Positions 39,808 to 62,838 of a stretch of 64,000 nucleotides of DNA are shown here, piece after piece. The position numbers were made by a program, and so were the translations under genes. The DNA comes from a virus. The stretch is taken from positions 27,070-91,069 of IMG/VR virus record IMGVR_UViG_3300020394_000267. One strand, 5' to 3'. Within the stretch, counting starts at the first letter, position 1. Each line of letters opens with the position of its first letter. The notes below the pieces were generated by a model. That model was not told the origin of the DNA, searched no databases, and saw nothing but the letters and a program-made list of their open reading frames with translations.

Positions 39808-39818
39808 AGTGGATTTCC

Positions 39819-40992: not shown

Positions 40993-41073
40993 TTGACTTC
41001 CTCTCTCACTTATGTTATAGTATACACTATTGTGACTATTTATAAAGTAGCGCTTCGTTCAGCGATATAAATA
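40993..41073. promoter_or_regulatory. Divergent promoter region: sigma70 TTGACT-N17-TATAGT (+); late TATAAATA at 41066-41073 (+) and 41037-41044 (-)
   Basis: Motifs read directly between divergent operons. Confidence 0.7.
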
Positions 41074-41079
41074 TGGCGT

Positions 41080-41811
41080 ATGAAGAAAATAATTGACAGA
41101 TTGTTAAGACCTACCCCTATCAGTCTACTGGTAGGGCAGACTATAGCCCAAATTTCAGTCATACCCATGTTCTTCATTGGTACACCTGTAACTTGGGCGA
41201 TTTGTGCATTTATGTACTTTGGAATCATGACTTTTGGTATCACAATGGGATATCATCGATACTGGAGTCACTATAGTTTCAAATGTTCTAAATGGTTAGA
41301 ATATGTTATGATGTTTTTTGCCCACATTATGATGGTTGGCCCAGCACTAGCATGGGTTGCTCAACACAGGGAACACCATGACCACGCGGATACAGATAAA
41401 GACCCACACTCACCAGAGTATCAAGGATTCATTCGTTGTTACTACTCACAAGTGATGTCTTTACCTAAAATGCAATATGTAAAGAAAGATTTATTGAGGG
41501 ATGAATTATGCAAAACACAGCATCGTTATTACTGGCATTTCTTGCTACTATGGCTATCTGTTCTTATTCTATTTGGTGGTATTGAAGCAATCATATATGC
41601 ATGGTTAGCTCCAGCAGGATTTGCCAAATTAATAGGGTCAATAGTTTTTGTTCACTCACATAGAGGGGGAAAACCTCGTAGTGATTACTGGTTGGGAATG
41701 GTTACATTCGGTGAAGGGTTTCACGCGAAACATCATGAAGAACCTTGGAGTTGGGACTTTCACCGTTGGGATATAGGTGGAAAAATTATTCGGTTATTAA
41801 AACATGCTTAG
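41080..41811 (+). CDS. Membrane fatty acid desaturase (delta-9/DesC-like)
   Basis: His boxes HRYWSH, HREHH, GEGFHAKHH; DPHSP. Confidence 0.9.
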   Translation: MKKIIDRLLRPTPISLLVGQTIAQISVIPMFFIGTPVTWAICAFMYFGIMTFGITMGYHRYWSHYSFKCSKWLEYVMMFFAHIMMVGPALAWVAQHREHHDHADTDKDPHSPEYQGFIRCYYSQVMSLPKMQYVKKDLLRDELCKTQHRYYWHFLLLWLSVLILFGGIEAIIYAWLAPAGFAKLIGSIVFVHSHRGGKPRSDYWLGMVTFGEGFHAKHHEEPWSWDFHRWDIGGKIIRLLKHA

Positions 41812-42514
41812 AAAAAGAGATTTACCTACAGTTGCAAAACTAGACATAGAATTTGATATTGATAAAATAAAACATTACATAGACTCATTAGACCAAGGTG
41901 GATGGGGTGATGTATATGAATCAAATGAGGGAATTACTAATTTTGCTAATGCAGACTTTATAAGAGGTCTGGAATATAATGATTTTAAAGAATACCCATG
42001 TCAATACCTTAGACCAGAATACTGGGAAGAAATGAAGAATCCTAGTTTAGACTTGGGCAAGAGTAAAACAGAAGTTTATAGAAACAAACATGAGAGAACC
42101 AATAAACTCTCTCCAGTTGGTAATGAACACATGTGGGATTATGACATGCCTCATTATAGAGGAAGTTATATTCAAAGACACATCACAGAAAACTTCAAGG
42201 CGGAGTCTTGTAGGACAAGAATTCACTGGTTACCAAAAGGTAAACAGATACAACCACATATTGATTATGATGCTTCTTATGCGGTTAGAATTGTCGTACC
42301 TATATCGGGTACAGACAATGTTATAAATGCCTTCTGGCCGAAAAACCAGAGGGAAGAATATAACTTGAAAGCAGATGGTTCAGCTTATTTTATAAACATC
42401 GGTTACAAACATGCCGTTGAACATAATGGAAGTGAAGATAGAATTGCTTTGTTATTTACATTGAAGAGCCAAGAAGATGTGGAAGATTACGCCATACAAA
42501 AAGAAGTACAGTAA
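41804..42514 (+). CDS. 2OG-Fe(II) oxygenase (Asp/Asn beta-hydroxylase-like)
   Basis: PHIDY...KHAVEHNGSEDRI. Confidence 0.75.
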   Translation: MLRKRDLPTVAKLDIEFDIDKIKHYIDSLDQGGWGDVYESNEGITNFANADFIRGLEYNDFKEYPCQYLRPEYWEEMKNPSLDLGKSKTEVYRNKHERTNKLSPVGNEHMWDYDMPHYRGSYIQRHITENFKAESCRTRIHWLPKGKQIQPHIDYDASYAVRIVVPISGTDNVINAFWPKNQREEYNLKADGSAYFINIGYKHAVEHNGSEDRIALLFTLKSQEDVEDYAIQKEVQ

Positions 42515-43055
42515 ACAATGGGAACAATTTAGAGAACAAGCTCTTAATGAAGGCAATGATTCTCTAATAAAAGAAAAGTTAGACCCAGAAAACCTAGATG
42601 GTATCCTTCATCTTCTATGGGAAGATGGGGAACTCGCCTCTTGTCAAGCTGCTGAGGTTGACCATTATACAGATAACCCCACTGCAATCAGAATGTGTAG
42701 ATTGCATACACTGAAACAATTCAGAAGAACAACATATGGGATGCCTCTCACCAAAGTTCAAATTGATTGGGCGAGAGACATGGGATATGAACATATTTGG
42801 GCGTCAGTCGATGTTAACCGTGTTGGTTATAACGCGATATGGCAGAACAAAAGAAAATCACCAAACTATCAAGATTGGAAAGAAGATTTTGATACTTGGT
42901 GGAAAGATATAATATGGAACAAGAAATATTTGTTTAAGGTTGACCCTGTAGCAGAGTATTATCAGTACATCTATGTTATTAATTTAGTGAACAAGGAATT
43001 CATTCCTAAAAAGAATGTTGTTCCTTTTAATTCGGAGATACGAAATGCACATTGA
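42477..43055 (+). CDS. GNAT-like acyltransferase
   Basis: RLHTLKQFRR...QIDWARDMGYEHIWASV. Confidence 0.55.
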   Translation: MWKITPYKKKYSKQWEQFREQALNEGNDSLIKEKLDPENLDGILHLLWEDGELASCQAAEVDHYTDNPTAIRMCRLHTLKQFRRTTYGMPLTKVQIDWARDMGYEHIWASVDVNRVGYNAIWQNKRKSPNYQDWKEDFDTWWKDIIWNKKYLFKVDPVAEYYQYIYVINLVNKEFIPKKNVVPFNSEIRNAH

Positions 43056-43638
43056 ACATGAAACAGTCGCAAGATGGTTTAATTATGTTAGAGAAAAATC
43101 GAACCCTCGATTTACAGAATGTTTCTGGGATACACAATTAAAATCCAAAGCAGAAATTATAGACAACATACCACAACACTTTCACGGTAACTATTACCTT
43201 TTTGGTGGATGGTTTGGGGTTCTTGCTCATTTACTTAATGACAATATAGTTGCAGATGAAATATACACGGTTGATATTGACCCAATGTGTAAAGAGGTCG
43301 GAGATGTATATTTTCTCAATGCAAACATAACATATGTCACAGATGATATGTGTAACTTTGAGTACCCAAAAAAACCAGATGTTGTTATAAACACCAGCAC
43401 CGAACATTTACACCAGTATGACTATCAAAAATGGTGGGACAACATTCCAGAAGGAACCTTTTATGCAGTACAGGGGAATGACCTTGATATACCAGAACAT
43501 GTTCGTTCATTTAAATCACTCGCGTACTTCTTGGAATGGAATAGATGCACAAACACATGTTACGAGTCAGCAATAGAATTGCCTGGCCCTAACAACTCAA
43601 CTTATACTAGATTTACAGCAATGGGGTACAAAGCATGA
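43045..43638 (+). CDS. Class I SAM-dependent methyltransferase-like protein
   Basis: FGGWFGVL, VDIDP, VINTSTEH. Confidence 0.7.
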   Translation: MHIEHETVARWFNYVREKSNPRFTECFWDTQLKSKAEIIDNIPQHFHGNYYLFGGWFGVLAHLLNDNIVADEIYTVDIDPMCKEVGDVYFLNANITYVTDDMCNFEYPKKPDVVINTSTEHLHQYDYQKWWDNIPEGTFYAVQGNDLDIPEHVRSFKSLAYFLEWNRCTNTCYESAIELPGPNNSTYTRFTAMGYKA

Positions 43639-44408
43639 ATGTAGCAATACTTGGTTATGGATTTTGTGGGAAGGCTACTGAGCGTATGCTTAGAACATGT
43701 AAAGAAATAAAACGAATTCAAATTCAAGACCCAAAATATGATAAAAAAATATCACCAGACGAATGGGACTTGATTGACTATGCTTTTGTTTGTGTTCCAA
43801 CACCACTAATACAAAACTACAGTGTAATGGATCATTTTTACAATGGAAATGAGTTTGATATGTCTATTGTCCATAAAGCAATAGAAGATGTACCAGACAG
43901 AACAAGAATAGTTATCCGTAGCACAGTTGGCCCAGATAATTTAGAAAAAGGTTGGATTCACTGGCCTGAATTCTTGCGAGAAAATAATTGGGAAGAGGAT
44001 GCAGATGATAAATCAATTCCTTTTATATTAGGTGTAGACCACGATGATAAAGATGCAATTAATGATTTAGTTTGGTTAATGAAAGACCGAGATGGGGTAC
44101 TTGTTAATCCAAAAGTGGCTGCAACTTATAAGTTGTCTAGGAACGCGATGTTAGCTGCCAAAGTAACCATGGCAAACTACATTCACAAAGTATGCGAAGA
44201 ACAAAATATATCATATGGGTCTGTAGCAGGGTTATTAAAAGACCATGCAAATTTAGGAACATCTCACTGGGATGTGCCAGGCCCCGATGGTCAATATGGT
44301 TTTGGTGGTTCTTGTTTTCCAAAAGACACCACACACTTTGCTTCAATGTTAGGTAATCAAAGTAACATCTTTACTCATGTCTTGAGGTGCAATGAACGAA
44401 GTCGCTAA
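43635..44408 (+). CDS. UDP-glucose/GDP-mannose dehydrogenase family protein (short form)
   Basis: GYGFCG, FVCVPTP, IRSTV, PEFLRE, GFGGSCFPKD. Confidence 0.88.
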   Translation: MNVAILGYGFCGKATERMLRTCKEIKRIQIQDPKYDKKISPDEWDLIDYAFVCVPTPLIQNYSVMDHFYNGNEFDMSIVHKAIEDVPDRTRIVIRSTVGPDNLEKGWIHWPEFLRENNWEEDADDKSIPFILGVDHDDKDAINDLVWLMKDRDGVLVNPKVAATYKLSRNAMLAAKVTMANYIHKVCEEQNISYGSVAGLLKDHANLGTSHWDVPGPDGQYGFGGSCFPKDTTHFASMLGNQSNIFTHVLRCNERSR

Positions 44409-45669
44409 ATACCTAGATGATATTACAAGAAGAAACAACGCAATCGGTAAGGGATTCTGTGTTCTAAAGTGGTGGCATTTAGAAATGCATTTGGGTACAG
44501 GTAATTATCATTCCTGTTTTCATTGTCCACAACAAAATCTTAAACTTGATGAAGATATGCATAATACTCTTCACAAGATGCAACAAAGAAAAACTATGTT
44601 GGAAGGTGGGAGACCAGATGAATGTTCTTATTGTTGGAAGGCAGAAGATGTTGGTGCGGTAAGTCCTAGAACAACCCTTACTCCAATATACACGCAGATG
44701 GAAGAGGATATCATTGAAACCACTGCTAACTTAAAGTGGGATGAATATGTGTATCCAAAGTATTTGGAGATGAGTTTTTCAAATACATGTCAAATGAAAT
44801 GTTCCTATTGCGCTCCGTCTTTGAGTTCTACCTTGTTACAAGAAATTAAAAAGGAAGGTGCGTATCCTCTCGCAGACCCAGAGAATCGTGGACAATATGA
44901 ATTAAATGGAACTGAGGAACTTTATAAGGATGATGATAACCCCTTGTTGGATAAGTTTTGGGATTGGTTTAGTGAGGCAAGAAAACATCTTGATACATTG
45001 AGAATAACAGGCGGAGAACCCTTGTTACATAAAAGTACATTTGATATGATGGATAGATTGCGTGGAGAGTCTATCAACTTTCATATAAACAGTAATTTAT
45101 CAGTATCGAATAGAAGAGTAACAGAAGCATGTAACTTGTTACCAGCGAAGTCTAAAGTGTATGCTAGTGTAGATACATTTGGAAAACAGGCAGAGTGGAT
45201 TAGACACGGACTTAACTGGGATTTATTTGACCAGAATGTTCTTACTGTTATCAATCACAAAATACCATTGAGTTTTATGACAACATTCTGTTTATTAAGT
45301 ATACCTAGATTCAAAGACTTTTTATATTATATCGTACAACTAAAAGATATAGGGGATGTATTGATTGATACACCGTTTATGACAAACCCGCCACATTTGT
45401 CATGTCTTATAATGGATGATGATATGAGAGAAACATTAGAAGATAGTTATCAGTTTATGTCATATAACAGTGAGTTTAACCACGCGGAAGTCGTAAAATT
45501 TGAAAGACTATTGAAATGGGTGGATGCAAATAGGTTCACTGGAGAACGCCTAAATAGTCACAGAAAGGATTTTAAAACATTTGTCGATGAACATGATAGA
45601 CGCAGAGGCACAAATTGGCATGATGCGTTCCCAGAGTTGACATATTTTTATGAGTTATGTGATGCCTGA
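44392..45669 (+). CDS. Radical SAM protein with N-terminal twitch domain (1 of 7)
   Basis: FCVLKW..SCFHC..ECSYCW; CQMKCSYC; TGGEP. Confidence 0.9.
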   Translation: MNEVAKYLDDITRRNNAIGKGFCVLKWWHLEMHLGTGNYHSCFHCPQQNLKLDEDMHNTLHKMQQRKTMLEGGRPDECSYCWKAEDVGAVSPRTTLTPIYTQMEEDIIETTANLKWDEYVYPKYLEMSFSNTCQMKCSYCAPSLSSTLLQEIKKEGAYPLADPENRGQYELNGTEELYKDDDNPLLDKFWDWFSEARKHLDTLRITGGEPLLHKSTFDMMDRLRGESINFHINSNLSVSNRRVTEACNLLPAKSKVYASVDTFGKQAEWIRHGLNWDLFDQNVLTVINHKIPLSFMTTFCLLSIPRFKDFLYYIVQLKDIGDVLIDTPFMTNPPHLSCLIMDDDMRETLEDSYQFMSYNSEFNHAEVVKFERLLKWVDANRFTGERLNSHRKDFKTFVDEHDRRRGTNWHDAFPELTYFYELCDA

Positions 45670-47050
45670 AAACAAACCCAATGAATACTGGATAGAACAG
45701 TTAAAAGAAAAACGAGAAAAGATTAATCAAATTAGTCCTTCTTTTTGTTCTGCTAAATGGTTACAGACTACTCTCTATTTGCAGAATGGGTATAATCACT
45801 CTTGTCACCATCCCTCGCCTCATAAAATACCAGTAAAAGAAGTATTAGAGAATCCAGCAGCTCTTCATAATAGTAATTATAAGAAGCAACAAAGAATCAA
45901 AATGATTAATGGTGAAAGACCCAAAGAGTGTGATTATTGCTGGAGAATAGAAGACCAAGGTAAGGGACACTTTTCTGACCGTCATTATAAAACTGCTGAT
46001 TGGTGGTCATGGGATAAGGTTGATGTTATTGCAACTGATAACCCCACAAAAGATGTCTACCCAACATACCTAGAGGTGTCGTTTTCAAACGCATGTAATT
46101 TCGCGTGTGCATATTGTTCACCAGAAATAAGTTCTGAGTGGATGAAAGATATAGAAAAAAATGGTGACTACCCTGTAGAGTTTGGTTCTGGTAATCTTGA
46201 CTATTTGAGACAAGTAGAAAAGTTTCCATATAAACACTCTGACCCCAATCCATATGTAGATGCATTTTGGAAATGGTTCCCAGAGGCGCTTCCTCATTTG
46301 AGAGTGTTTCGTATTACTGGTGGTGAACCCACTATGAGTAAAGATGTATGGAAGGTATTGGATTACATATATGAAAATGCTCAACCAGAATTGTCTATTG
46401 CAATCAATAGTAATCTTGGTACAACACCAAAATTGATACAGAGACTTGTTGACTCATGTAACAAATTAAGAGACAAAGTTAAACAAATTGAGATATATAC
46501 AAGTGCGGAGGCAATTGGAGAACAGGCAGAATATATAAGAGATGGAATGGATTATGATTATTGGCGTTCTAATGTAGAAAAGGTTTTAACAGAAACAGAC
46601 GCGAATGTAGCAATCATGACTACATTGAACATATTGAGTATGACTACATTTGAAAACTTCATTGAAGACATAATGCAGTTAAGAATCAAGTATAATAAAG
46701 ATTTAGCGAATAATAGAATACCGTTAAGTATAAACTATTTGAGATTCCCCCCTCATTTACAATGTACTCTATTGGATAGAAATACCAGAATATCCTATGC
46801 ATCTGATTATGAACTAATAGCAAAGGTTTGGTTGAAGTACAATTCACCAGACAAGTTCGCAAGAATTTATTTGGAAGAGTATGACCAGATACAAAGGTTC
46901 TGTGAATATCTTAGGCAAGAACACAAAGGTGCTGAAAAATATAGAGCAGACTTTGTAAATTATATAAAAGCCTACGATATCAGAAGGTCGAAAAACTTTA
47001 GCAAAACTTTTCCAGAATATAAACATTTATTGGAGTGGTGGGATGCCTAA
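45650..47050 (+). CDS. Radical SAM protein with N-terminal twitch domain (2 of 7)
   Basis: FCSAKW..SCHHP..ECDYCW; CNFACAYC; TGGEP. Confidence 0.9.
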   Translation: MSYVMPENKPNEYWIEQLKEKREKINQISPSFCSAKWLQTTLYLQNGYNHSCHHPSPHKIPVKEVLENPAALHNSNYKKQQRIKMINGERPKECDYCWRIEDQGKGHFSDRHYKTADWWSWDKVDVIATDNPTKDVYPTYLEVSFSNACNFACAYCSPEISSEWMKDIEKNGDYPVEFGSGNLDYLRQVEKFPYKHSDPNPYVDAFWKWFPEALPHLRVFRITGGEPTMSKDVWKVLDYIYENAQPELSIAINSNLGTTPKLIQRLVDSCNKLRDKVKQIEIYTSAEAIGEQAEYIRDGMDYDYWRSNVEKVLTETDANVAIMTTLNILSMTTFENFIEDIMQLRIKYNKDLANNRIPLSINYLRFPPHLQCTLLDRNTRISYASDYELIAKVWLKYNSPDKFARIYLEEYDQIQRFCEYLRQEHKGAEKYRADFVNYIKAYDIRRSKNFSKTFPEYKHLLEWWDA

Positions 47051-47270
47051 AAAATACATTCATGTAAACATGCACAAAATTCGTGCTAATAAAAAACATG
47101 GGACAAACGAACCTGTTCTTACAGTAAAAGAGGGAAGAAAAAATACTTATGGACATAGTGTAAAGATACATGGCCCGAGTGAAGTAATATATGGTGGCAA
47201 TGATAAACCATTGTTACCCTGTGGGGCAAGAGTTGTTATAATGACAGAAGCGGAGATTGAAATTGAATAA
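47043..47270 (+). CDS. Conserved small phage protein
   Basis: IHVN.HKIRAN.K...KPLLPCGARV motif. Confidence 0.7.
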   Translation: MPKKYIHVNMHKIRANKKHGTNEPVLTVKEGRKNTYGHSVKIHGPSEVIYGGNDKPLLPCGARVVIMTEAEIEIE

Positions 47271-48765
47271 AGAATATGATTTGATAAAGTATCGGAAAGA
47301 CATTCTTGATACTAAGTCGAAGAGTTTTTGTGGTGCGAAATGGTACAACGCTACCACATGGTTAGGTAGTGGTACTACTGCTAGTTGTCATCACCCCCCA
47401 GCACATAAGATTCCGTTACACGAGATTGCAGCTGACCCATCTGCTATTCACAATACGCAACATAAGAAAGCAATGCGTAAGATGATGCAACGCGGAGAAA
47501 GACCGCGTGAGTGTGAGTATTGTTGGAAAGTTGAAGACATGGGCAATGATGCAGTTAGTGACAGAGTTTTTAAATCAATCATATACACCAATGAAGATTT
47601 AAAGAAGGCACACGAAGCAGACTTCAATGATAACACACTATTAAAAACATTTGAGATTGCATTTGACCGAACATGTAACCTTGCTTGTTCTTATTGTAAC
47701 TCAAGTTTCTCTACTACATGGGCAAAGGATATAAAGAAACATGGCCCTTATCAAAACATGGTATCAGATGGTGCGGCCGCCTTCCAACATGACGGTGCGT
47801 GGGCAGACCCATATGGTAAGAAAGAAGAGAATCCATATGTAACTGCTTTCTGGGATTGGTGGGAAGATGGACTATCAGAAAGTCTTGAAGAGTTGAGAGT
47901 TACAGGTGGAGAACCTTTAATGTCTGACCAAGTATGGAAGTTGTTTGATTGGTTTGAGAATAATCCATCTGACATGCGATTTGCAGTAAACTCTAATCTC
48001 ATTGCGAAGGAAAGTATTGTTGATAGATTGATTGAAAAATCAAAAGGGGTTAAGAAGTTTCATCTTTATACTAGTTGCGAGGCAACAGGAAAACAAGCAG
48101 AGTATATAAGAGATGGACTTGATTACGAACTATGGACTAATAATATAACGCGATTTATCAAAGAAGGCAACTATGAGGGCATCAATATAATGATGACTAT
48201 TAATAGTTTGTGTCTGTTTAGTATCACAGACTTCTTAGATGATGTATTCAAACTAAAAGAATTGACAAAAAGTAAGACACCTGTATTTAGTGTTAACTTA
48301 TTGCGATTCCCTAGTTTCCAAAGTCCTCTTGCACTACCAGACCATATTAAAGATTATCTTAGAGAGAATCTATCTAATTGGTATGAAGAAAATAAAGACA
48401 GACAATACTGGCACGATTTTGAAAAAGCAAGTATTGAAAGATTGATAGACTATCTAGTAATTGTTGATGCACCACATAGACGAACCAGTGACAAGATGAC
48501 TTTGTGGAGAGATTTTAAAACCTTCTATGGTCAATATGATGAAAGAAGGGATAAAAGTATTTCTGTGTTTCCAGAAATTCTTACTGATTGGGTAGACACC
48601 CTTCCAGATACAGAAACAAAACCTATTACAGTTATGCCAAGTGGTGACAGTACAGAACAGTACGCGGATGACCCCGACTTGAAAAAGATTGCTGAAGAAG
48701 AAGGTTGGGTATTGAAACCAGACAATAAAAACATCGACAAACCATTAGGAGATTACGACAAATGA
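47257..48765 (+). CDS. Radical SAM protein with N-terminal twitch domain (3 of 7)
   Basis: FCGAKW..SCHHP..ECEYCW; CNLACSYC; TGGEP. Confidence 0.9.
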   Translation: MKLNKEYDLIKYRKDILDTKSKSFCGAKWYNATTWLGSGTTASCHHPPAHKIPLHEIAADPSAIHNTQHKKAMRKMMQRGERPRECEYCWKVEDMGNDAVSDRVFKSIIYTNEDLKKAHEADFNDNTLLKTFEIAFDRTCNLACSYCNSSFSTTWAKDIKKHGPYQNMVSDGAAAFQHDGAWADPYGKKEENPYVTAFWDWWEDGLSESLEELRVTGGEPLMSDQVWKLFDWFENNPSDMRFAVNSNLIAKESIVDRLIEKSKGVKKFHLYTSCEATGKQAEYIRDGLDYELWTNNITRFIKEGNYEGINIMMTINSLCLFSITDFLDDVFKLKELTKSKTPVFSVNLLRFPSFQSPLALPDHIKDYLRENLSNWYEENKDRQYWHDFEKASIERLIDYLVIVDAPHRRTSDKMTLWRDFKTFYGQYDERRDKSISVFPEILTDWVDTLPDTETKPITVMPSGDSTEQYADDPDLKKIAEEEGWVLKPDNKNIDKPLGDYDK

Positions 48766-49640
48766 AGATATTAATGACAGGTTCCTCTGGGTTCATAGGG
48801 TCTCACCTTACACCCTACCTAAGAGAACATGAAATTCATCACTTACAAAGTGATTTAAGACATCACGGATTGGTTAGAACAGAGGTTAGAGATTTTCAAC
48901 CAGACATGATTGTACACCTTGGAGCGAGAACAGAAGTTGAACAAAGTTTCTATGAACAAATAACATTCAGTGAAATTAACTATGTTGGTAGTGTAAACCT
49001 TATTGAAGTCTCAAGAGAGATTCCTAATTTTAAGAACTTTGTTTTTGCGAGTACAATGGAAGTATATGGCCCGCAACCAAAACATACAGTATGTGACCAT
49101 CTTACTACTCCATATCCAAATGCACCATATGCCGTTGCTAAATATGGTGTTGAAAAATATCTGGAGTATGCTGGTAGGTCTTATAGTCTTCCTTATACTA
49201 TTATTAGACAGACCAATTGTTATGGTAGAAAAGACAACGACTTCTTTGTTACTGAACAGATTATAACTCAGATGTTAGACAATCCAGATGAAATACATTT
49301 GGGATATGCTGACCCCTATCGTAACTTTATATACATTGATGATATGTTAGATGCGTGGACTGCCATTATTAATAATCCAGAAAAATGTAAGGAGAAGATA
49401 TTTACCCTAGGCCCAGACAACCCGATTCAAATAAGAGACTATGTTGATATCATTGCTCAAAAAATAGGTTGGGATGGAAAGGTATATTGGAATACAAAAC
49501 CAGAAAGGCCAGGCGAAATATATTGGTTGAATAGTAGTGGAAAGTTATTAGAAGATACACTTGGTTGGATACCAAAAGTGACTCTATCAGAAGGATTAGA
49601 TAGAACAATTTCTTGGTGGAGAAATGTCAGTAAAAGATAG
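48762..49640 (+). CDS. NAD-dependent nucleotide-sugar epimerase/dehydratase
   Basis: TGSSGFIG, ASTMEVYG, YAVAK (YxxxK). Confidence 0.9.
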   Translation: MKILMTGSSGFIGSHLTPYLREHEIHHLQSDLRHHGLVRTEVRDFQPDMIVHLGARTEVEQSFYEQITFSEINYVGSVNLIEVSREIPNFKNFVFASTMEVYGPQPKHTVCDHLTTPYPNAPYAVAKYGVEKYLEYAGRSYSLPYTIIRQTNCYGRKDNDFFVTEQIITQMLDNPDEIHLGYADPYRNFIYIDDMLDAWTAIINNPEKCKEKIFTLGPDNPIQIRDYVDIIAQKIGWDGKVYWNTKPERPGEIYWLNSSGKLLEDTLGWIPKVTLSEGLDRTISWWRNVSKR

Positions 49641-54481: not shown

Positions 54482-55655
54482 TAAGATTTGTGTATTGCCT
54501 TGGGTTCACACGGAGTTCACTACAGATGGAACCGCGAACCCATGTTGTTTATATAAAGGCAATCCTATGGGGAACCTAAAACAAGAAAACTTTCTTGATG
54601 TCTGGAATGGAGAACCATATAAGAACTTACGAAGAGAGTTTCTTGAAGGCAAACAACCATCTGGATGTGCCATGTGTTGGGAAGGAGAAGAGGCAGGATA
54701 TCAATCAAAGAGATTACAAGATAATAAAAGATTTGCTAAAGAACTTGAAGAGATAAAAGAAAGACAAAGTTTTATTGCTACTGATACTCCAAAATATCTT
54801 GACTTAAAGTTTGGTACATTATGTAATTTAAAGTGTAGAACTTGTGGTAGCATAAACAGTTCAAAGTGGCAAACAGACGAGAAAAAACTATACGGTAGAA
54901 TTCTAAACAAAAAAGACCCCTTGTGGATTGCAAAAAATCCAAGTGTGTGGGATGAACTTTTTGAGATTATGCACACAGTAGAACAAATGGACTTCACAGG
55001 CGGTGAACCATTTATGATAGAAGAACACTTTGAGTTATTGCGTAGAACAGTCGAGGCTGGACACGCGGAACACATATCTTTACATTATAACACAAATGGG
55101 ACTATTCGTCCACCACAAAAGATATTTGATTTGTGGAAAGAGTTCAAGTCTTGTGAAGTAATGTTCAGTATTGATGGGATATTCAAGAAATTTGAATATA
55201 TTAGACACCCAGCAAAATGGGATGAAACTTGGGACAACTATAACTACTTTAAATCACTTGATTGGATGTATGTTCAAGTATGTCATACAGTTAGTCTTTA
55301 TAACATATACTATTTGGATGAGTTTGTAGACATGTTTGGAAGAGAAAATATATATCTCAATCTTTTACACTTTCCTAGACAGTATTGTGTTAGGAATATG
55401 CCAGATGTATGTAAAAAACAGGTTGAGGATAAACTTATAAATATGACAGATATGAATGATATCATATCTTTCATGAACCAAGAACCAAATTTTGATAAAT
55501 TAGACCTTGGGTTTTTACCTGTTACAGAAAGATTAGATGGATTGAGAAATGAATGTTATAGTGAAGTATTTCCAGAATTTTATAGGATATTGATTGATGG
55601 CGGAATTGGAAAAGAACCTTGGAACCCTAAACAGTACTTTGGACAGATTAGTTGA
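54474..55655 (+). CDS. Radical SAM protein with N-terminal twitch domain (7 of 7)
   Basis: CVLPW..PCC..GCAMCW; CNLKCRTC; TGGEP. Confidence 0.9.
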   Translation: MTDKICVLPWVHTEFTTDGTANPCCLYKGNPMGNLKQENFLDVWNGEPYKNLRREFLEGKQPSGCAMCWEGEEAGYQSKRLQDNKRFAKELEEIKERQSFIATDTPKYLDLKFGTLCNLKCRTCGSINSSKWQTDEKKLYGRILNKKDPLWIAKNPSVWDELFEIMHTVEQMDFTGGEPFMIEEHFELLRRTVEAGHAEHISLHYNTNGTIRPPQKIFDLWKEFKSCEVMFSIDGIFKKFEYIRHPAKWDETWDNYNYFKSLDWMYVQVCHTVSLYNIYYLDEFVDMFGRENIYLNLLHFPRQYCVRNMPDVCKKQVEDKLINMTDMNDIISFMNQEPNFDKLDLGFLPVTERLDGLRNECYSEVFPEFYRILIDGGIGKEPWNPKQYFGQIS

Positions 55656-57339
55656 AGAAGTATCTGGTCTTAGAAGCGAACTCCAAGAATTAAAAAAAAT
55701 AAATGCGAATGTTTTACAAAAACATCTAGTTAGAAAAAGCACCCCAAAAGAAACCCACTATCTTTTTTGGGATAGAAAGAAAAACAAAGTAGACCACGAA
55801 GATGTATTTTCTTGGCCTGCTTCCAATTGTTCTTCCACGCCCAATGAAGTTTATCAAGGGCAAACTTCTGTGTTGGGTCATTACCAAAAAGTTGACTGGC
55901 CATATGAGTTAGTAGATATTGAAAACTTTGATGGTAATGGAGTTCACAAAAATACAAACAATCTTTATTTCTTAGAACCGCAATATGTGTTTTGTGATTC
56001 ATGGGCTAACTCTATAGAATGGATTCCACAAGAAGTACAGTGTTGGTTACGAGAACGAAAAATGGCACTGGTGTTATGGTTTCCACACGAGGGATTTAAT
56101 TTTAATCAAGGGTTTGAAAATAAAGGTTGGTTATTACAGTTTCATTTGCAGATGAGAAAACACCAACTAGAAAATGCTATAACATATTTTGTTTTTGGTG
56201 ATTTACAAGCAGAACCCAATTATCAAAACTGGTTAAGAACTAGAATGGGTAATGAAAAAACCGCATTTGAGTTTACTAAAACAATTTCATATGACTTTTT
56301 CCACGGTGGTTATTGGCACGAATATGCTGATAGAACTGGTGTTTATGTACACAGACACCAGAACCCAAAACACATGCATCAAGAACACTATGGTGCTTCA
56401 GAACTTACTGGTGGATTTACTGACCATGTTATTATACCATATGAAAAGTTTGACGCGGAAATACTAAACTCCACTCCTAATCAAGTTGTACAGGACTCGT
56501 ATGATAGATGTAAACCAGAGGAGATTCTTGTTGGAATACCTACTGCTGGAGACAAACAAAAAGATTTGATATGTTTGAACGCAAGACCACGGTCACATAG
56601 ACCAGTACTTGTTTCTGAATTAGATAGGTTGGGATATAACAATAGTAACTCTTATATAAGTTTTCTTGGTAGAGAAGATATGCCAGACCAGTATGGAAGT
56701 TTAGTTTCTGACAACGGTGGTCAACCCATATGGAAAGAACAAATGTTTAGGGGATTGGATATTACTGCCTTTACCGCGAGAAAGGATAACAATTACATAT
56801 CATTTTTAAATCACGATGTACAGATAGAATATGCATATAGATTCTGGAAAGACAGACTTCAAGTTGTTGCAGATAAACCTTTACACGATGTTAACATTGA
56901 TGATAGGTTGATAACCTCTAACATGTATAAAGATGCTTTCTTTAGTCTGGTATCAGAAACCTTGTTTGGTGATGATAAAGATTCTTTATTCTTAACAGAG
57001 AAGATTTTCAAACCTATTGCTTATAGAAACCCATTTATGGTTGTTGGTACGATGGGGACACTAAGACATCTTCATTATTTGGGATATGAGACATTCCCAG
57101 AAATGTTTGATGAAAGTTATGACCAAGAATATCACCCACAACGAAGATGGGAAATGATTCTTAGGAATCTTGAATCTTGGCGCCAGTTGAGTCACGATGA
57201 AAAAATGCAAAAATACGATAGTGTTAGAGATAAACTAAAACACAACTTTGAAGTGTTTAAAAACGCGAGAGGTAGACATGAGAAAGATATCGTTGGCGTA
57301 CTAAGTCAACTATCATCCCATAGTGTTGAGATTCACTAA
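55594..57339 (+). CDS. Glycosyltransferase-like protein (GT-B / GT10-like motif)
   Basis: CLNARPRSHR; FSLVSET...LTEKIFKPI..PF..G...LGYETF. Confidence 0.55.
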   Translation: MMAELEKNLGTLNSTLDRLVEEVSGLRSELQELKKINANVLQKHLVRKSTPKETHYLFWDRKKNKVDHEDVFSWPASNCSSTPNEVYQGQTSVLGHYQKVDWPYELVDIENFDGNGVHKNTNNLYFLEPQYVFCDSWANSIEWIPQEVQCWLRERKMALVLWFPHEGFNFNQGFENKGWLLQFHLQMRKHQLENAITYFVFGDLQAEPNYQNWLRTRMGNEKTAFEFTKTISYDFFHGGYWHEYADRTGVYVHRHQNPKHMHQEHYGASELTGGFTDHVIIPYEKFDAEILNSTPNQVVQDSYDRCKPEEILVGIPTAGDKQKDLICLNARPRSHRPVLVSELDRLGYNNSNSYISFLGREDMPDQYGSLVSDNGGQPIWKEQMFRGLDITAFTARKDNNYISFLNHDVQIEYAYRFWKDRLQVVADKPLHDVNIDDRLITSNMYKDAFFSLVSETLFGDDKDSLFLTEKIFKPIAYRNPFMVVGTMGTLRHLHYLGYETFPEMFDESYDQEYHPQRRWEMILRNLESWRQLSHDEKMQKYDSVRDKLKHNFEVFKNARGRHEKDIVGVLSQLSSHSVEIH

Positions 57340-58394
57340 TGTACTGGTCACAGGGAGCAGATAAGAAAAGTGGCAGTGTCCATATAACAGAATTTGAAAG
57401 GATATTTGTTAGAGAGTTAAAACTACAAAAACCAGATGATTGTATTCTCGTCAATTCTACATGGTTTTCAAAACCAGAGAATGTTGAAGACTTGAAACAA
57501 TGGTTTGGTGCTAGTCAATTCATCACCACCCCTAGAGTCTTGTTGTATTCTGGTATGGATTGGGAAAACTCCACATGTACAGAGTCTACGCGAGAAGCAC
57601 ATAAGTTCCTTAATGATAATTATGAAGTCATTAATATAGGTAATACAGGCACTGGGCATTATTTTAATTTTTGGTTATCTTTTATTCATAAACATATTGA
57701 CACTTTCTTTGATTCGTGTTATACTGAAAAACCAAATATAAAGAAACATTTTATGTGTTTGAATCATCAACCACATGAACATAGGATAGAACTTTTAAAC
57801 ATTCTTTATAATGTTGGTTTGTTTAAGCATGGTATAGTTTCCGCTGTTATTCCGCATGAAAAATATGAGTTTGAAACTCCCATAGTTTTAAATGAAAATA
57901 GACCACCTAAAATAATGGAAAAGGCGAATGAATGGGAGAAATTAAACGAAACGCATTTATCAAATGATATTATTTCTTTGGGAGACCCAGTATACTGGAA
58001 TAAACATTTCTGTACCGTAGTCACCGAAAGTGTTATGCATAGTGATGTTTTTTTAAGTGAAAAAACTTTTAAACCAATGATAGGATTAAGACCCTTTATT
58101 ATTTTGGGTGACATTGGTTTATATGACAAACTAAGAGAATGGAAGTTTGATACATTTGAGGACTTGTTTCCACTTTCAAATAAAGTGGGTACAAACGCCC
58201 TTGGGGAACCAGATAAATACATGAGAATAGATGCTGTAAATCAAGATTTAACAAACCTTCAAAGGAACTATAAACTTGATGAATTAAATATTCTTTACAA
58301 TGACCTAGAAGACAGATTGATGTATAACAGGAAAAGAGTCTTAGAGGTAATTAATGAAAACTACAACGATATTATGGAGATTAATAAGTTATGA
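57339..58394 (+). CDS. Glycosyltransferase-like protein (paralog of the previous gene)
   Basis: CLNHQPHEHR; VVTES...LSEKTFKPM.GLRPF. Confidence 0.55.
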   Translation: MYWSQGADKKSGSVHITEFERIFVRELKLQKPDDCILVNSTWFSKPENVEDLKQWFGASQFITTPRVLLYSGMDWENSTCTESTREAHKFLNDNYEVINIGNTGTGHYFNFWLSFIHKHIDTFFDSCYTEKPNIKKHFMCLNHQPHEHRIELLNILYNVGLFKHGIVSAVIPHEKYEFETPIVLNENRPPKIMEKANEWEKLNETHLSNDIISLGDPVYWNKHFCTVVTESVMHSDVFLSEKTFKPMIGLRPFIILGDIGLYDKLREWKFDTFEDLFPLSNKVGTNALGEPDKYMRIDAVNQDLTNLQRNYKLDELNILYNDLEDRLMYNRKRVLEVINENYNDIMEINKL

Positions 58395-59629
58395 CCAACA
58401 TTGCATTTATTGGATTTGGTAAATTAGGTAAACCTTGTGCTGAGGTGATTGCACAAAAAGGACACGATGTAAGTGTCTATGATACACGCGAAGTAGAAAG
58501 TGAATATTGTAACATTAAAGATACAATAGAAGAGGTTGTTAAAGATAGGTTATTTGTATTTGTCGCAGTACCAACACCACATGACCCATTGTACGATGGT
58601 TCAGAACCCACTTACCACTTACCACCGAAAGATTTCAATTACGATACTGTTAAAGAGGTAATCACAGAAGCAAATAAACATATGAATGAGAATCAGATAT
58701 TGGTTCTTATTAGTACTGTATTGCCTGGCACTGTAAGGAAAGAGTTTGTTCCTTTGATTACAAACACGAAGTTTGTTTACAATCCTTACTTGATTGCTAT
58801 GGGTACAGTCGCGTGGGATATGGTAAACCCAGAGATGGTAATGATAGGTACGGAGAACGGAGAAGAATCAGTAGAGGCACATAGTCTCATTCACTTTTAT
58901 AATGAGATAATGGAAAACTACCCTCGTTATGAAATTGGAACTTGGGATGAGTGCGAATGTATTAAAGTATTCTATAATACATTTATCAGCGCTAAGATTG
59001 GTCTTGTAAACATGATACAGGATGTCGCAGAGAGACAAGGTAATATCGATGTTGATGTAGTTGCTAATGCCTTGCGAGATAGTACGCAAAGAATCATGGG
59101 CCCAACCTATATGAAGCCTGGAATGGGAGATGGTGGTGCATGTCATCCAAGAGACAATATCGCACTTAGATATATGGCGCAAGAATTAAATTTAGGATAT
59201 GACTTGTTTGCTGAAATAATGAAGGCACGAGACATACAAGCAGAAAATATGGCAGTTGCCATTTTAAAACACGGAAACAAAATTGGATTTACATCCGACT
59301 CATATAAACCAGATGTTCCATATACAAACGGCAGTTACAGTCTACTAGTTCAACATTATGTAAAAGAACACGGTGGATTCATTACACCCCTTTCTTCACA
59401 CCCACATGTGATTGTAAAGGTACATGAGTCTGATTTAATAGCAACCGACTTTGAGGGGGTCGTATTTGACCCTTGGAGAAGTCATGTGGGAATAAATGTT
59501 GTACACTACGGAGATACGAGGAATGAAACAACGAACAAAAAAGAAACTGCACAAATTCATGAAAGCTGGGAGACTAACAAAAGTGATCAGGAAGGTGTTG
59601 TTGGAGGTCTCGGAGAAGACCGACTCTAA
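58391..59629 (+). CDS. ugd: UDP-glucose 6-dehydrogenase family protein
   Basis: IGFGKLG, VAVPTP, ISTVLPGT, KVFYNT, GDGGACHPRD. Confidence 0.88.
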   Translation: MTNIAFIGFGKLGKPCAEVIAQKGHDVSVYDTREVESEYCNIKDTIEEVVKDRLFVFVAVPTPHDPLYDGSEPTYHLPPKDFNYDTVKEVITEANKHMNENQILVLISTVLPGTVRKEFVPLITNTKFVYNPYLIAMGTVAWDMVNPEMVMIGTENGEESVEAHSLIHFYNEIMENYPRYEIGTWDECECIKVFYNTFISAKIGLVNMIQDVAERQGNIDVDVVANALRDSTQRIMGPTYMKPGMGDGGACHPRDNIALRYMAQELNLGYDLFAEIMKARDIQAENMAVAILKHGNKIGFTSDSYKPDVPYTNGSYSLLVQHYVKEHGGFITPLSSHPHVIVKVHESDLIATDFEGVVFDPWRSHVGINVVHYGDTRNETTNKKETAQIHESWETNKSDQEGVVGGLGEDRL

Positions 59630-59726
59630 ACTTGATGAGATAGAGCAAAAAGAAAAAGAAAAACAAGAAGCTCTTGAAAAGAAACTCAAAAAGATGAGAG
59701 AACGAGACCCATTTATATATGACTAG
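59523..59726 (+). CDS. Small basic protein ending RDPFIYD
   Basis: GGAG/GAGG RBS; KKMRERDPFIY motif; overlaps the 3' end of ugd. Confidence 0.6.
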   Translation: MKQRTKKKLHKFMKAGRLTKVIRKVLLEVSEKTDSKLDEIEQKEKEKQEALEKKLKKMRERDPFIYD

Positions 59727-60588
59727 ATTAGTTGGATACGGTTGTTCTTTTACTGCTGGTGCGGAATTAGCAGACCATGATATGTTGGGATGTGACATAG
59801 AGACAGTCGATAACTTAAAAAGACAAGGATTGGTTTGGGATGAAATATGGAAAAAGTTGGGTCACGATGTTGACCCCTTTGCCGATTTTCACGATTTATT
59901 TAGAACCGTCAAACTTGAAGAGATTCCCAATTTAAAAGAAGGGGAAGATATTTGTAGGTCAAGAAGTTGGGTTAGATACCTCGCGGAACTTAGGGGACAT
60001 GATAGATACAAAAATCATGCACAGGGAGGCACCAGTTTAACAACAGTAATATATTTCTTAGAAACTGATATTATTAATGGATGGGTTAATCCAGAGGAAG
60101 ATGAAATTATTGTACAGGTTCCACACATATACAGATGGATGACATTTGATATAGATGGTAATTTTAGTCCAATCAGACCAGAAAATATATTTGAATCTAT
60201 GATAAAATTTAAACAGGAACATGACAATAACTTCATGGCAAGTGAAAGTGCTTATCTTGTTAATGAAATGAATTATTGGAATTTAACTTGGAGATACTAC
60301 CAACAATTAAAACATTTACATAACATAGGTGTTAAATTCTTTTTTATAGAGTCACCGCCACTAAGAATGAGAGACCAAGTAGTAAGTGATGTTGATATAT
60401 CACAGAAGGCACATGAATATGTAAGAGAAGATTTTGAAAAGTATTGGAATTGGATTGATAGTAATGCAATAGATACGAAACCAGTTTGGCAAAATTGGAC
60501 TCGTTCTAAAAGACATGGAAACAATCATTACTTTGAAAGAACACAAATTGATATTGCGAGATATTTAAATGATAAGTTGGGGAATTAG
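59719..60588 (+). CDS. SGNH-hydrolase-like protein
   Basis: GYGCSFTAG, NHAQGGTS, C-terminal NNHY. Confidence 0.6.
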   Translation: MTRLVGYGCSFTAGAELADHDMLGCDIETVDNLKRQGLVWDEIWKKLGHDVDPFADFHDLFRTVKLEEIPNLKEGEDICRSRSWVRYLAELRGHDRYKNHAQGGTSLTTVIYFLETDIINGWVNPEEDEIIVQVPHIYRWMTFDIDGNFSPIRPENIFESMIKFKQEHDNNFMASESAYLVNEMNYWNLTWRYYQQLKHLHNIGVKFFFIESPPLRMRDQVVSDVDISQKAHEYVREDFEKYWNWIDSNAIDTKPVWQNWTRSKRHGNNHYFERTQIDIARYLNDKLGN

Positions 60589-61984
60589 TGCTTGTACACA
60601 TGACGCTTCTTTAGCGGTTGTTAGAGATGATGAGATATTGTTTGCCTCTCATAGTGAGAGATTTAGCGGTATAAAAAATGACGCATTTCTCAATCCAGAA
60701 ATTATCATGGAAGCGAAAAAATATGGTGAACCAGATTTTGTTTATTGGTACGAAAATCCTTGGTTAAAATGGACAAGGAAAAAATACGCGAAACAACAAA
60801 GACCTTGGTTAAGTCCTAAGAAATACTTAAAACACTTTGGAGTCAAGGCGCCTTATTATACCACGCACCACAAATCACATGCGGCTGCTGGGTACTACAC
60901 TTCACCATTTAAAAGTTCTGCTATATTAGTTATTGATGCTATTGGAGAGTGGACTACTACATCTATATGGAAGGACATGAAGTGTATTTGGACTTCTAGG
61001 TATCCTAATTCATTGGGATTGTTCTATTCCGCGATGACAGATAGAATTGGACTGAAGGCAAATGAAGATGAGTATATTCTTATGGGTATGGCTGCATATG
61101 GTGACCCAAATAGATTTCATCGTGATATTAAACGATTACTAAAAGAAAACTTGCATAGAGGGTGTAGATGGTGGAACCCAGATTTAAAAGAAGAGGATTA
61201 TTTTGATGTCGCAGCTGCTACACAAAAAATTTATGAATGGGAGTTTAGAAAATTATTGTTTACAACTGCAAGATTAACAGATGAAACTAATTTAGTTTTC
61301 ATGGGTGGATGTGCCTTAAATTGTTTGGCGAATAGATTTATTCCAGAATATTTTTCTAATCATTGGATTATGCCCAATCCAGGCGATGCTGGTTCTTCTA
61401 TTGGTGCGATTGCAGCTAGGGAACACAAAAAGTTGAAATGGAAAACACCTTACCTTGGATATAACATAGAGGGTACATATCCAACCAATGACCTATTATC
61501 AAATCTAAATGCACTTAAAATAGTTGGTGTTGCAAATGGTAGGGCAGAGTTTGGGCCAAGAGCATTGGGGAATAGAAGTTTACTCGCAGACCCAAAAGGT
61601 TCAGAGATGAAAGATGTTGTTAATAAGATTAAAAAGAGACAGGAGTTTAGACCCTTTGCACCAGTTATACTAGAGTCAGAAGTACACAAGTATTTTGATG
61701 TACCAGAAGGATTCCAATCACCGTACATGCAACATGTCGTTAAATGTAAAGAACCAGAACTGTTTCCCGCCATAGTACACAAAGATGGAACCAGTAGAGT
61801 CCAGACTGTTAATGACGAACAACACAGCGGATTATCTCAGTTATTAAGGAGATGGAAAACACATAGTGGACATCCTATCCTTCTAAATACTAGTTTGAAC
61901 ATCAAGGGCGAACCAATCGTCAATGATGAAAAAGATGCAGCTAGGTTTGAAAAGAAGTATGGAGTTAAAGTGTGCGTGAGATAA
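60569..61984 (+). CDS. O-carbamoyltransferase (NodU/CmcH family)
   Basis: HDAS, ERFSGIKND, HHKSHAAAG, GGCALNC, EFGPRALGNRS, FRPFAP, LNTSLN. Confidence 0.93.
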   Translation: MISWGISACTHDASLAVVRDDEILFASHSERFSGIKNDAFLNPEIIMEAKKYGEPDFVYWYENPWLKWTRKKYAKQQRPWLSPKKYLKHFGVKAPYYTTHHKSHAAAGYYTSPFKSSAILVIDAIGEWTTTSIWKDMKCIWTSRYPNSLGLFYSAMTDRIGLKANEDEYILMGMAAYGDPNRFHRDIKRLLKENLHRGCRWWNPDLKEEDYFDVAAATQKIYEWEFRKLLFTTARLTDETNLVFMGGCALNCLANRFIPEYFSNHWIMPNPGDAGSSIGAIAAREHKKLKWKTPYLGYNIEGTYPTNDLLSNLNALKIVGVANGRAEFGPRALGNRSLLADPKGSEMKDVVNKIKKRQEFRPFAPVILESEVHKYFDVPEGFQSPYMQHVVKCKEPELFPAIVHKDGTSRVQTVNDEQHSGLSQLLRRWKTHSGHPILLNTSLNIKGEPIVNDEKDAARFEKKYGVKVCVR

Positions 61985-62838
61985 AGTATCATAATGATGA
62001 AACCATAAAAGTTGATGGACTACATTTCTATGGATGTTCTTTTGTTGCTGGACAAGAATTATTAGATGAAGAAATGGGTAGTCCTATGTCTATACCAGTA
62101 GAACAGATGGCTAGACAGAAAAATGAACCTATTGAACAGTATTATAAAAGAAAATTATCCAGAGAACTTTTATTTAAAAAGAAGATAAAACTCGAAAGTC
62201 AATTAGCATGGCCTCAATACATGTGTAATACATTAAAGGTTAGATGTTTTAACCACGCGACACATGGTGCATCTATGACCGAAATAAAAGGCAGACTTTT
62301 TAATGATGTCATAGAAGGAAATATATCATCTTCTGAAGCGGTGGTTGTAGGACTTACTGGATTTGCTAGAGAAATGGTATTTAGTGAAAATACAAGTGGA
62401 CAGGAAATGTGGAAGACGAGAGAAGGTGGAGTTAGGAGTATGGTTGTTGCTACTGACTATGAACGAAGGGGTGATAATGACTTTGCTAGGAAGTATATGG
62501 ACTTGAAAGGAACTTTCACTTTATTTTATTATTTTCTTCATGAAATATACAGTATTATCAATTTATGCAAAATAAATGACATAAAATTTTACTTAATACC
62601 CATGTTAGACCGTTTTGAGTCAGAATTTTACGAAAAACAGTTTGACTTTGATATAAAATCTCAAGAATTTAGTTCTCACATAGATTTCCTAGAATCAGAA
62701 ATAGATAAGTATATAATAATAGGAACAAAGGTTGACCCTTTAGGGGGCAACATCATTAAGAGACTACCAAGGGGCCATCCTTGTATTGAGAGTCACGAAA
62801 AATATGGTATCAAGGTTGGTAAGAAGTTATTAACATGA
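61972..62838 (+). CDS. SGNH-hydrolase-like protein
   Basis: FYGCSFVAG, NHATHGAS, GHPCIESH. Confidence 0.6.
   Translation: MREIKYHNDETIKVDGLHFYGCSFVAGQELLDEEMGSPMSIPVEQMARQKNEPIEQYYKRKLSRELLFKKKIKLESQLAWPQYMCNTLKVRCFNHATHGASMTEIKGRLFNDVIEGNISSSEAVVVGLTGFAREMVFSENTSGQEMWKTREGGVRSMVVATDYERRGDNDFARKYMDLKGTFTLFYYFLHEIYSIINLCKINDIKFYLIPMLDRFESEFYEKQFDFDIKSQEFSSHIDFLESEIDKYIIIGTKVDPLGGNIIKRLPRGHPCIESHEKYGIKVGKKLLT

Follow-up and report, generated by a model that had tools for sequence, protein, structure and literature searches.

The DNA analysed here, referred to as the window, is a 64,000-nucleotide stretch of viral sequence (bases 27070-91069 of the 91-kb linear IMG/VR record IMGVR_UViG_3300020394_000267, with a completeness estimate of 47%), and the subject of this report is an island at window positions 41080-63140 in which seven radical S-adenosylmethionine (SAM) enzyme genes lie among genes for sugar-related enzymes. 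The window encodes a T4-type primase that is approximately 40% identical to cyanomyovirus primases as well as a ribonucleotide reductase, a PhoH gene follows the island immediately, and the source is, as judged by sequence, an uncultured marine T4-like phage. The open reading frame (ORF) list places 22 genes in the island, all on the plus strand, and bears out a first-pass annotation of this DNA that had described the genes as co-oriented and overlapping. Nearly all of the stop codons overlap the following start, and the sole gap (59630-59718) is occupied by a small ORF. As part of the explanation that we consider best, 41080-63140 would form a single translationally coupled operon. The GC content of the island is 34-37%. 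Genes are named below by the position of their first nucleotide.

The Pfam domain Radical_SAM was detected in seven island genes (44392, 45650, 47257, 49624, 50928, 52147 and 54474), and in four of the seven a SPASM domain was found N-terminal to the radical SAM core. All seven products scored above the cut-off of the NCBIfam model NF033640 (N_Twi_rSAM) over their full length, with 292-407 bits spanning model positions 1-3 to 388-398; the curated cut-off is 170 bits, and the match was repeated on DNA. An alignment of the seven paralogs showed invariant cysteines at positions 23, 42, 78 and 81 (numbering of the first paralog), followed by C133, C137 and C140 of the CxxxCxxC motif and then by GGEP. 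The CxxxCxxC and GGE-type SAM-binding motifs are kept in every copy, which places all seven among the radical SAM enzymes on sequence grounds, and the twitch domain precedes the core in all seven, which is the architecture of NF033640. The conserved twitch cysteines, all of them N-terminal, number four in one subfamily (A: FCxxKW and SCxH; 44392, 45650 and 47257) and five in the other (B: CxxPW and CC; 49624, 50928, 52147 and 54474), and their spacing corresponds to that predicted for one auxiliary cluster, i.e., a twitch domain. Identity within the two subfamilies is 32-35% and 28-32%, and 22-28% between them. The earlier claims of seven genes with twitch cysteines ahead of CxxxCxxC, and of a division into three and four, are thus upheld by the Pfam, alignment and NF033640 results and by the identities, the alignment and the tree described below, respectively. 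The reversed domain order that the annotation had pointed out is present but is not new, having already been curated as NF033640.

All seven genes lie on the plus strand. Those of subfamily A are 44392..45669 (NF033640 292 bits, with the invariant cysteine set and GGEP; ratio of nonsynonymous to synonymous substitution rates, dN/dS, 0.03-0.04), 45650..47050 (332 bits, in its own clade with bacterial orthologs; dN/dS 0.05-0.07) and 47257..48765 (301 bits; dN/dS 0.02), the most conserved orthogroup, whose product is 59% identical to gp202 of the Ralstonia phage RsoM2USA and about 50% identical to the products of Bdellovibrionota genes. Those of subfamily B are 49624..50931 (334 bits; SPASM at residues 10-85 and Radical_SAM at 130-286), with orthologs in 29 bacterial loci at 44-56% identity; 50928..52154 (342 bits), which in bacteria mostly adjoins a 49624-type gene; 52147..53367 (407 bits), for which at least 6968 homologs were found at E<=1e-10 and for which phmmer found no match among PDB sequences at E<=0.01; and 54474..55655 (363 bits; dN/dS 0.05-0.10). 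One more radical SAM gene, the eighth in the window, shows the normal order of domains and is located at 14918-16033 (+) among replication and nucleotide genes (Radical_SAM at residues 13-179, a weak SPASM match at 269-344, and only 52 bits to NF033640).

Synteny of the island extends to seven IMG/VR contigs, with gene order kept down to 61-81% identity of the radical SAM proteins; the synteny check that had been proposed at the outset therefore came out in favor of a conserved island. Compared with two of these contigs, dN/dS was 0.02-0.13 for all seven radical SAM genes. None is degenerate and GGEP is kept throughout, and the genes are intact and under strong purifying selection. In a tree of the seven window paralogs and 71 homologs from other loci, each window protein fell into its own clade with bacterial orthologs, and the set must therefore predate this phage. 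Thus, on phylogenetic grounds, the seven represent seven different, ancient orthologous groups, and the view of the paralog set as specific to phages has to be abandoned, since both the tree and the genome counts given below indicate an ancient family that is common to bacteria and no phage invention. Within the same contigs, the glycosyltransferase (GT)-like and DUF6071-like proteins are 43-75% identical, as compared with 92-97% for most of the radical SAM proteins, and some relatives lack, or have a substitute for, the epimerase, 53357, 55594, 59719 or 61972. The 75-residue basic protein encoded between two radical SAM genes (47043..47270, +; phrog_8676, E 5.7e-19) is 100% identical in the loci L001 and L003 (dN 0, dS 0.09-0.32) and is absent from L005.

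Among the accessory genes, the best defined is that of a NodU/CmcH-type carbamoyltransferase (60569..61984, +), in which both the N- and C-terminal domains are present (PF16861, 178 bits against a cut-off of 27; PF02543, 121 bits against 24) and dN/dS is 0.05-0.07. It does not reach the NodU equivalog (130 versus 1000 bits). Its product is 47% identical to gp199 of RsoM2USA and 48-51% identical to proteins of six other loci (L012, L063, L064, L066, L068 and L018). Outside the ORF list we identified a 67-residue micropeptide ending in RDPFIYD (59523..59726, +). It is read in a different frame from 58391, the 3' end of which it overlaps, and its own stop codon overlaps the ATG of 59719. Related peptides of 33-40 residues (longer in L018) that end in RDPFIY(K/D), SDPFIYR or QDPFIYK lie upstream of carbamoyltransferases that are at least 47% identical to that of the island, directly so in L005, L012, L063, L064 and L018. 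Such relatives were found in L005, L006, L012, L063, L064, L066, L068 and L018 and, unannotated, in RsoM2USA, where a 36-residue ORF ending in QDPFIYK lies between gp201 and gp200 (L080 13892-14014, -). The peptide is absent from radical SAM cassettes that lack this carbamoyltransferase subfamily, including the radical SAM-rich L052, L047 and L058, and is absent beside the 30-34%-identical carbamoyltransferases of HTVC008M and phage C48C1. Because it is missing wherever that transferase subfamily is missing, we assign it to the carbamoyltransferase and not to the radical SAM enzymes. It has no Pfam match, and a database search returned close 40-residue relatives only, none meaningfully named. 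The 3' extension of 58391 (59496-59629, +) overlaps the micropeptide ORF by about 100 nucleotides in the other frame; in the distant L005 the dehydrogenase ends right where the peptide begins, and both frames look conserved in close relatives. Two further observations concern the cassette of L068, from a Legionellales metagenome-assembled genome (MAG): an FNR-like FAD/NAD oxidoreductase gene, whose product could be an electron donor, comes right after the micropeptide (14436-15158), and a B12-binding radical SAM protein is encoded at 3212-4723.

Several island genes encode relatives of enzymes that act on nucleoside diphosphate (NDP) sugars. The 58391..59629 (+) product belongs to the NDP-sugar 6-dehydrogenase family (PF00984, 64 bits; PF03721, 56 bits) and is 56% identical to a protein of L027, and 43635..44408 (+) encodes a short homolog of 257 residues without the C-terminal domain (PF00984, 48.9 bits; dN/dS 0.15-0.25). 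The Pfam domains are above their cut-offs, whereas TIGR03026 (cut-off 189.8 bits) is reached by neither 58391 (135 bits) nor 43635 (82 bits), and we classify both as divergent NDP-sugar dehydrogenase relatives. The 48762..49640 (+) gene encodes an NAD-dependent epimerase/dehydratase of the short-chain dehydrogenase/reductase (SDR) type (PF01370, 140 bits; PF16363, 131 bits); the nearest NCBIfam models, dTDP-glucose 4,6-dehydratase and LegB, are both below cut-off, and it is this gene that is missing or replaced in L002 and L003.

A GT-B fold glycosyltransferase is predicted for 57339..58394 (+), whose AlphaFold2 model, built from a 30-sequence alignment, has a predicted local distance difference test score (pLDDT) of 90.4 and a predicted template modeling score of 0.89. 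The top PDB rows in Foldseek were nearly all GT-B enzymes, at E values of 2e-3 or above. In the VIA comparison T4 beta-glucosyltransferase came first with Z 11.5 (267 residues, root-mean-square deviation 5.0, 10% identity), tied within approximately one Z unit with many GT-B enzymes; T4 alpha-glucosyltransferase had Z 10.4, and many GT-B chains, including fucosyltransferases, had Z 9-10.5. Over residues 1-351 of the model, Z values of 8-11.5 place it in the GT-B class. For the GT10 fucosyltransferases (PF00852), there was no Pfam match at E<=0.01, and FUT9 and a bacterial FucT (Z 9.4) were tied with other GT-B enzymes; the nearest named ESM Atlas cluster, GT10 at 0.79, serves as a lead only. 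The preceding gene, 55594..57339 (+), encodes a 581-residue protein that falls in the same cluster as 57339, to which its C-terminal part is paralogous, and its N-terminus is coiled-coil-like. It clusters also with genes of L063 and L027 (alignment A3, with invariant E..EK..KP) and, at 67-75% identity in close relatives, evolves faster than the radical SAM proteins. PDB sequence searches with 55594 and 57339 gave nothing usable.

On either side of the carbamoyltransferase gene lie those of two paralogous DUF6071/SGNH-like proteins. The link to DUF6071 was made by hhalign against gp200, gp201 and gp203 of RsoM2USA together with bacterial PF19547-matching members, and for 59719..60588 (+) it reached 96.8% with E 2.2e-10; this protein is only 43-46% identical in close relatives. 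The second, 61972..62838 (+), matched the first in BLASTP at E 1.2e-6 and is part of the DUF6071-matching profile, and neither by itself reaches a Pfam family. The last coupled gene before PhoH, 62835..63140 (+), encodes a conserved 101-residue protein without a family match; its identity is 95% with the L001 counterpart and 70% with that of L005, whose gene again follows the carbamoyltransferase gene.

The gene between the last two radical SAM genes, 53357..54481 (+), encodes what may be a partner of the 52147-type enzyme. In its AlphaFold2 model (pLDDT 89.9), a helical bundle is inserted into a cyclophilin-like barrel. Pfam, NCBIfam and PHROG gave no match, a PDB sequence search gave nothing usable and Foldseek returned no match to the model; VIA gave a borderline Z of 7-8.7 to cyclophilin-fold chains. 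There are nevertheless 269 representative homologs. One protein (P0204) is a fusion of a 53357-like domain with an N_Twi radical SAM enzyme of the 52147 type, the upstream neighbor of 53357 in the window, and a 53357-like gene adjoins radical SAM and carbamoyltransferase genes in L012, L063 and L068. An identity as a 2H phosphoesterase was considered and set aside, as it came from ESM Atlas leads of only 0.82 that we did not trust.

To survey the occurrence of the family elsewhere, one genome per species was sampled; the seven-paralog alignment proved too diverse as a seed, and alignment A2 was used. Many of the 72 loci found are in Bdellovibrionota. In several, the same orthogroups are represented by between four and eight paralogs, which are often accompanied by a carbamoyltransferase (47-51% identical), 53357-like and 55594/57339-like genes, epimerases and DUF6071 genes; this company was seen in L012, L063, L068, L018, L027 and L058. 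Some cassettes are chromosomal, as is shown by flanks of housekeeping type (Obg, TsaD, a Na/Ca exchanger and GldG-type ABC genes). In three loci (L008, L010 and L027), in contrast, a tail-fibre-like gene carrying the Peptidase_G2 chaperone domain precedes the cassette, so that these resemble phage sequence that was binned into MAGs. N_Twi copies number 8-12 in each of five source genomes, and the family was present in 19 of the 101 Bdellovibrionota genomes sampled, with up to 11 copies. Among 150 nearest neighbors from 47 bacterial loci, the commonest after radical SAM genes were carbamoyltransferase (4), GT2 (4), epimerase/dehydratase (2), desaturase (2) and DUF6071 (2), and Pfam searches of ten recurrent neighbor families matched only Peptidase_G2 and DUF6071. 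Other phages also carry the family. The Ralstonia jumbo phage RsoM2USA has a small version of the cassette, annotated entirely as hypothetical, with the carbamoyltransferase (gp199), three DUF6071 proteins (gp200, gp201 and gp203) and the 47257-type radical SAM protein (gp202). Vibrio phage K566 has four clustered, distant N_Twi-like genes (VPHK566_0303, 0305, 0306 and 0308; L082 8965-15701), and a gene about 3 kb away is annotated as that of PagP, a lipid A acylation protein. A single copy is present in KVP40-like phages.

The island begins with a membrane fatty-acid desaturase homolog (41080..41811, +; PF00487, 47 bits against a cut-off of 29.7) with the histidine boxes HRYWSH, HREHH and HAKHH and hydrophobic segments; it is 89% identical in the relative G001, and the family also adjoins radical SAM genes in L018. 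This enzyme, both UDPG_MGDP_dh proteins, the SDR protein and the carbamoyltransferase all remain below NCBIfam equivalog or subfamily cut-offs. The next three genes gave only weak matches. The 41804..42514 (+) product is a possible 2-oxoglutarate (2OG)/AspH-like oxygenase (PF05118, E 8.5e-4, 19.6 bits, below the cut-off of 22.6), and its gene is syntenic in L001, L003 and L005; 42477..43055 (+) may encode a GNAT-fold protein (PF00583, E 0.006, below cut-off; dN/dS 0.11-0.13); and 43015..43638 (+) may encode a class I methyltransferase-like protein (Methyltransf_25, E 0.039 only). The start of the last is probably at 43045 rather than 43015, because tblastn over the first codons meets a stop in relatives, and homologs (cluster c12) occur near radical SAM genes in L027 and L041. 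Of the accessory functions named by the first-pass annotation, then, the two dehydrogenases, the epimerase, the carbamoyltransferase, the desaturase and the GT-like and SGNH-like proteins stood, whereas the 2OG oxygenase, the GNAT and the methyltransferase fell below threshold.

Upstream of the desaturase gene we noted a TATAAATA motif at 41066-41073 (+), a sigma70-like site at 40993-41021 and a second, divergent TATAAATA motif at 41037 (-). The divergent motifs hint at late expression; because scans for sigma70 promoters, terminators and TATAAATA gave nothing above chance, including the motif count, we treat this as a lead only. Rfam detected no RNA family within the island, and megablast of the island against cultured phages gave no match. 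Elsewhere in the window, a glutamine riboswitch (RF01739) is located at 35056-35119 (-), with 60 bits against a gathering score of 35, which we take to suggest a picocyanobacterial host. Directly upstream of the island, minus-strand genes occupy 37166-40940. The 373-residue protein (39819-40940) is 99% identical to its counterpart in G001 over the only 164 residues that matched, and the match of the 726-residue protein (37166-39346) consists of two blocks on either side of a variable middle; from these sequences the two look like hypervariable surface-type proteins.

One interpretation of these results is that the island, as one translationally coupled operon, encodes a nucleotide-sugar or glycan tailoring pathway. 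We favor it, at a probability of roughly 50%, because the defined enzymes handle sugars and because the company kept by the family in unrelated genomes again consists of sugar enzymes. Activated sugars of the uronic, keto or deoxy type would come from the dehydrogenases and the SDR protein, for transfer by the GT-B enzymes. The most economical reading of the radical SAM genes is that of seven different radical enzymes, one step each: every enzyme, with its SAM cluster and single twitch cluster, would abstract hydrogen from a different sugar C-H bond, and the outcome could be epimerization, alcohol oxidation, dehydration or deoxygenation, or C-branching. The 53357 protein might assist the 52147-type enzyme, the carbamoyltransferase and its RDPFIY micropeptide might O-carbamoylate a hydroxyl, and the DUF6071/SGNH-like proteins might attach an acyl group or take one off. 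Once finished, the glycan would most likely be placed on a virion protein or the host envelope. The multi-step glycan pathway of the first-pass annotation is thus supported in part, as it fits the sugar enzymes, the synteny, the selection and the bacterial neighbors. One could envision, further, that the seven orthogroups are a fixed relay that edits one sugar or glycan at several carbons, an undescribed glycan chemistry common to abundant marine phages, jumbo phages and predatory bacteria, with the micropeptide as a hitherto unrecognized, obligatory subunit of a carbamoyltransferase subfamily; we put this forward tentatively, as something that may well turn out otherwise.

A number of observations weigh against the sugar pathway. 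The NDP-sugar enzymes are all below NCBIfam cut-offs, and their substrates are therefore undefined. No NF033640 member with a known substrate was found, nor a PDB relative by sequence. The island contains no priming transferase, flippase or polymerase. Most neighbors in the bacterial cassettes are without any family, so that the enrichment for sugar enzymes is modest, and the cassettes of L052 and L047 are almost entirely radical SAM genes; in favor of a sugar role, on the other hand, an NTP-transferase is encoded some 4 kb away from the cassette in L052, which has eight copies. Finally, SPASM and twitch enzymes are best known as peptide maturases.

This last point leads to an alternative that we consider unlikely, namely that the substrate of the radical SAM enzymes is a protein or peptide, which they would alter either as in RiPPs (peptides that are made by ribosomes and modified after translation) or by crosslinks or epimerizations in a virion protein, with the sugar enzymes decorating the product or acting separately. 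The NCBIfam search gave weak matches to many such maturases. Their SPASM domain, however, is C-terminal, with seven cysteines and two auxiliary clusters, and the island enzymes have four or five N-terminal cysteines. The operon does encode a conserved micropeptide that could be a substrate, but this tracks the carbamoyltransferase subfamily and not the radical SAM genes, and no other conserved small ORF was seen beside the cassettes composed of radical SAM genes only. The 53357 protein, cyclophilin-like and fused to a radical SAM enzyme in one instance, is what a peptide-binding helper might look like, although the Z of 7-8.7 is borderline; the three cassettes that follow a tail-fibre-like Peptidase_G2 gene would also suit modification of a virion protein. 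Slightly less probable in our view is the production during infection of a diffusible small molecule, derived from an aminoglycoside, a nucleoside or a sugar, in place of a surface glycan. The characterized sugar-acting twitch enzymes and NodU/CmcH/TobZ come mostly from secondary metabolism, and the island is without export or polymerization genes. The saxitoxin cluster, moreover, pairs the carbamoyltransferase SxtI with the small SxtJ and SxtK and the GDSL protein SxtL (PMC2679770). Against this, Pfam and NCBIfam searches of the window proteins detected no scaffold-forming enzyme (polyketide synthase, nonribosomal peptide synthetase, cyclase or aminotransferase), the island micropeptide has no Pfam match, and rapid evolution of the kind found in acceptor-specific surface enzymes is seen in both GT-B proteins.

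Two other scenarios seem to us far less plausible. The pathway might hypermodify the phage DNA, for example by glycosylation and carbamoylation of a base. The phage is T4-like, T4 DNA beta-glucosyltransferase and alpha-glucosyltransferase are among the structural matches of 57339, the former as the best, and radical SAM enzymes take part in some thymidine hypermodifications. The Z-scores are nevertheless tied with those of generic GT-B enzymes, the same cassettes occur in bacterial chromosomes beside housekeeping genes, and no PF00303 (thymidylate synthase family) hydroxymethylase was found in the record or in relatives that are 83% and 91% complete. (A search for Tet/JBP, PF12851, found none in this record and matched no control genome either, and was thus uninformative.) Of the three destinations proposed by the first-pass annotation, DNA is accordingly the least likely, at very long odds. 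It is even harder to maintain that the island is a patchwork of auxiliary genes that are unrelated to one another and serve no shared pathway. Marine T4-like phages do have variable regions, five of the island genes are missing or replaced in some relatives, and the desaturase could act alone on host lipids; such a mosaic is difficult to reconcile with 22 overlapping, co-oriented genes, with clusters of the same families in distant phages and bacteria, with the fusion protein P0204 and with the strictly kept pair of micropeptide and carbamoyltransferase.

NF033640 has thousands of members, judging from the homologs of one paralog, and we found no known reaction for any of them; literature searches likewise found no characterized member, no paper on the family or on an N-terminal SPASM domain, and no relevant paper on phage radical SAM enzymes together with a carbamoyltransferase. 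The pathway thus appears to be undescribed as far as these searches show, and its enzymes belong to a known but uncharacterized family. In some predatory bacteria the copies number up to a dozen, and marine T4-like phages devote about 11 kb to seven. If the enzymes do perform radical chemistry on sugars, they would constitute a new tailoring toolbox and a new decoration of the phage or host surface, with possible consequences for adsorption, evasion of defence or superinfection exclusion. Experimental handles are offered by carriers with deposited genomes and named hosts or sources (RsoM2USA gp199-204, Vibrio phage K566 and the KVP40-like phages), by the fusion of 53357-like and 52147-type genes, and by the unannotated micropeptide that is tied to the carbamoyltransferase.

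Among known systems, the small GT-B enzymes typified by T4 DNA beta-glucosyltransferase have the same fold and size as the 57339 model; at 10% identity this likeness is tied with that to many other GT-B proteins, and a hydroxymethylase of the thymidylate synthase family, which would set the island beside T4-type glucosylation, was not found in the record or its near-complete relatives. The twitch enzymes BtrN (2-deoxy-scyllo-inosamine dehydrogenase) and NeoN resemble the island enzymes in having one four-cysteine auxiliary cluster in addition to the SAM cluster and in having sugar-enzyme neighbors; they differ in that their twitch domain is C-terminal, and the 52147 protein matched no PDB chain by sequence at E<=0.01. 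With the saxitoxin cluster the island shares a carbamoyltransferase, a very small protein and an SGNH/GDSL-type protein, but its micropeptide lies upstream of the transferase and the rest of the sxt pathway is absent. Also comparable are the sugar and lipopolysaccharide clusters of marine T4-like phages such as the Pelagibacter phage HTVC008M, which has carbamoyltransferase, methyltransferase and UDP-glucose/GDP-mannose dehydrogenase genes. Its dehydrogenase is 48% identical to 58391 and is adjoined by its carbamoyltransferase (30% identical); unlike the island, HTVC008M has no N_Twi radical SAM match and no RDPFIY micropeptide. There is, finally, NF033640, which all seven island proteins match from end to end and with which they share the cysteine set, CxxxCxxC and GGEP. 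NF033640 is a sequence model only, and its description does not extend to a phage operon with seven orthogroups as a fixed set.

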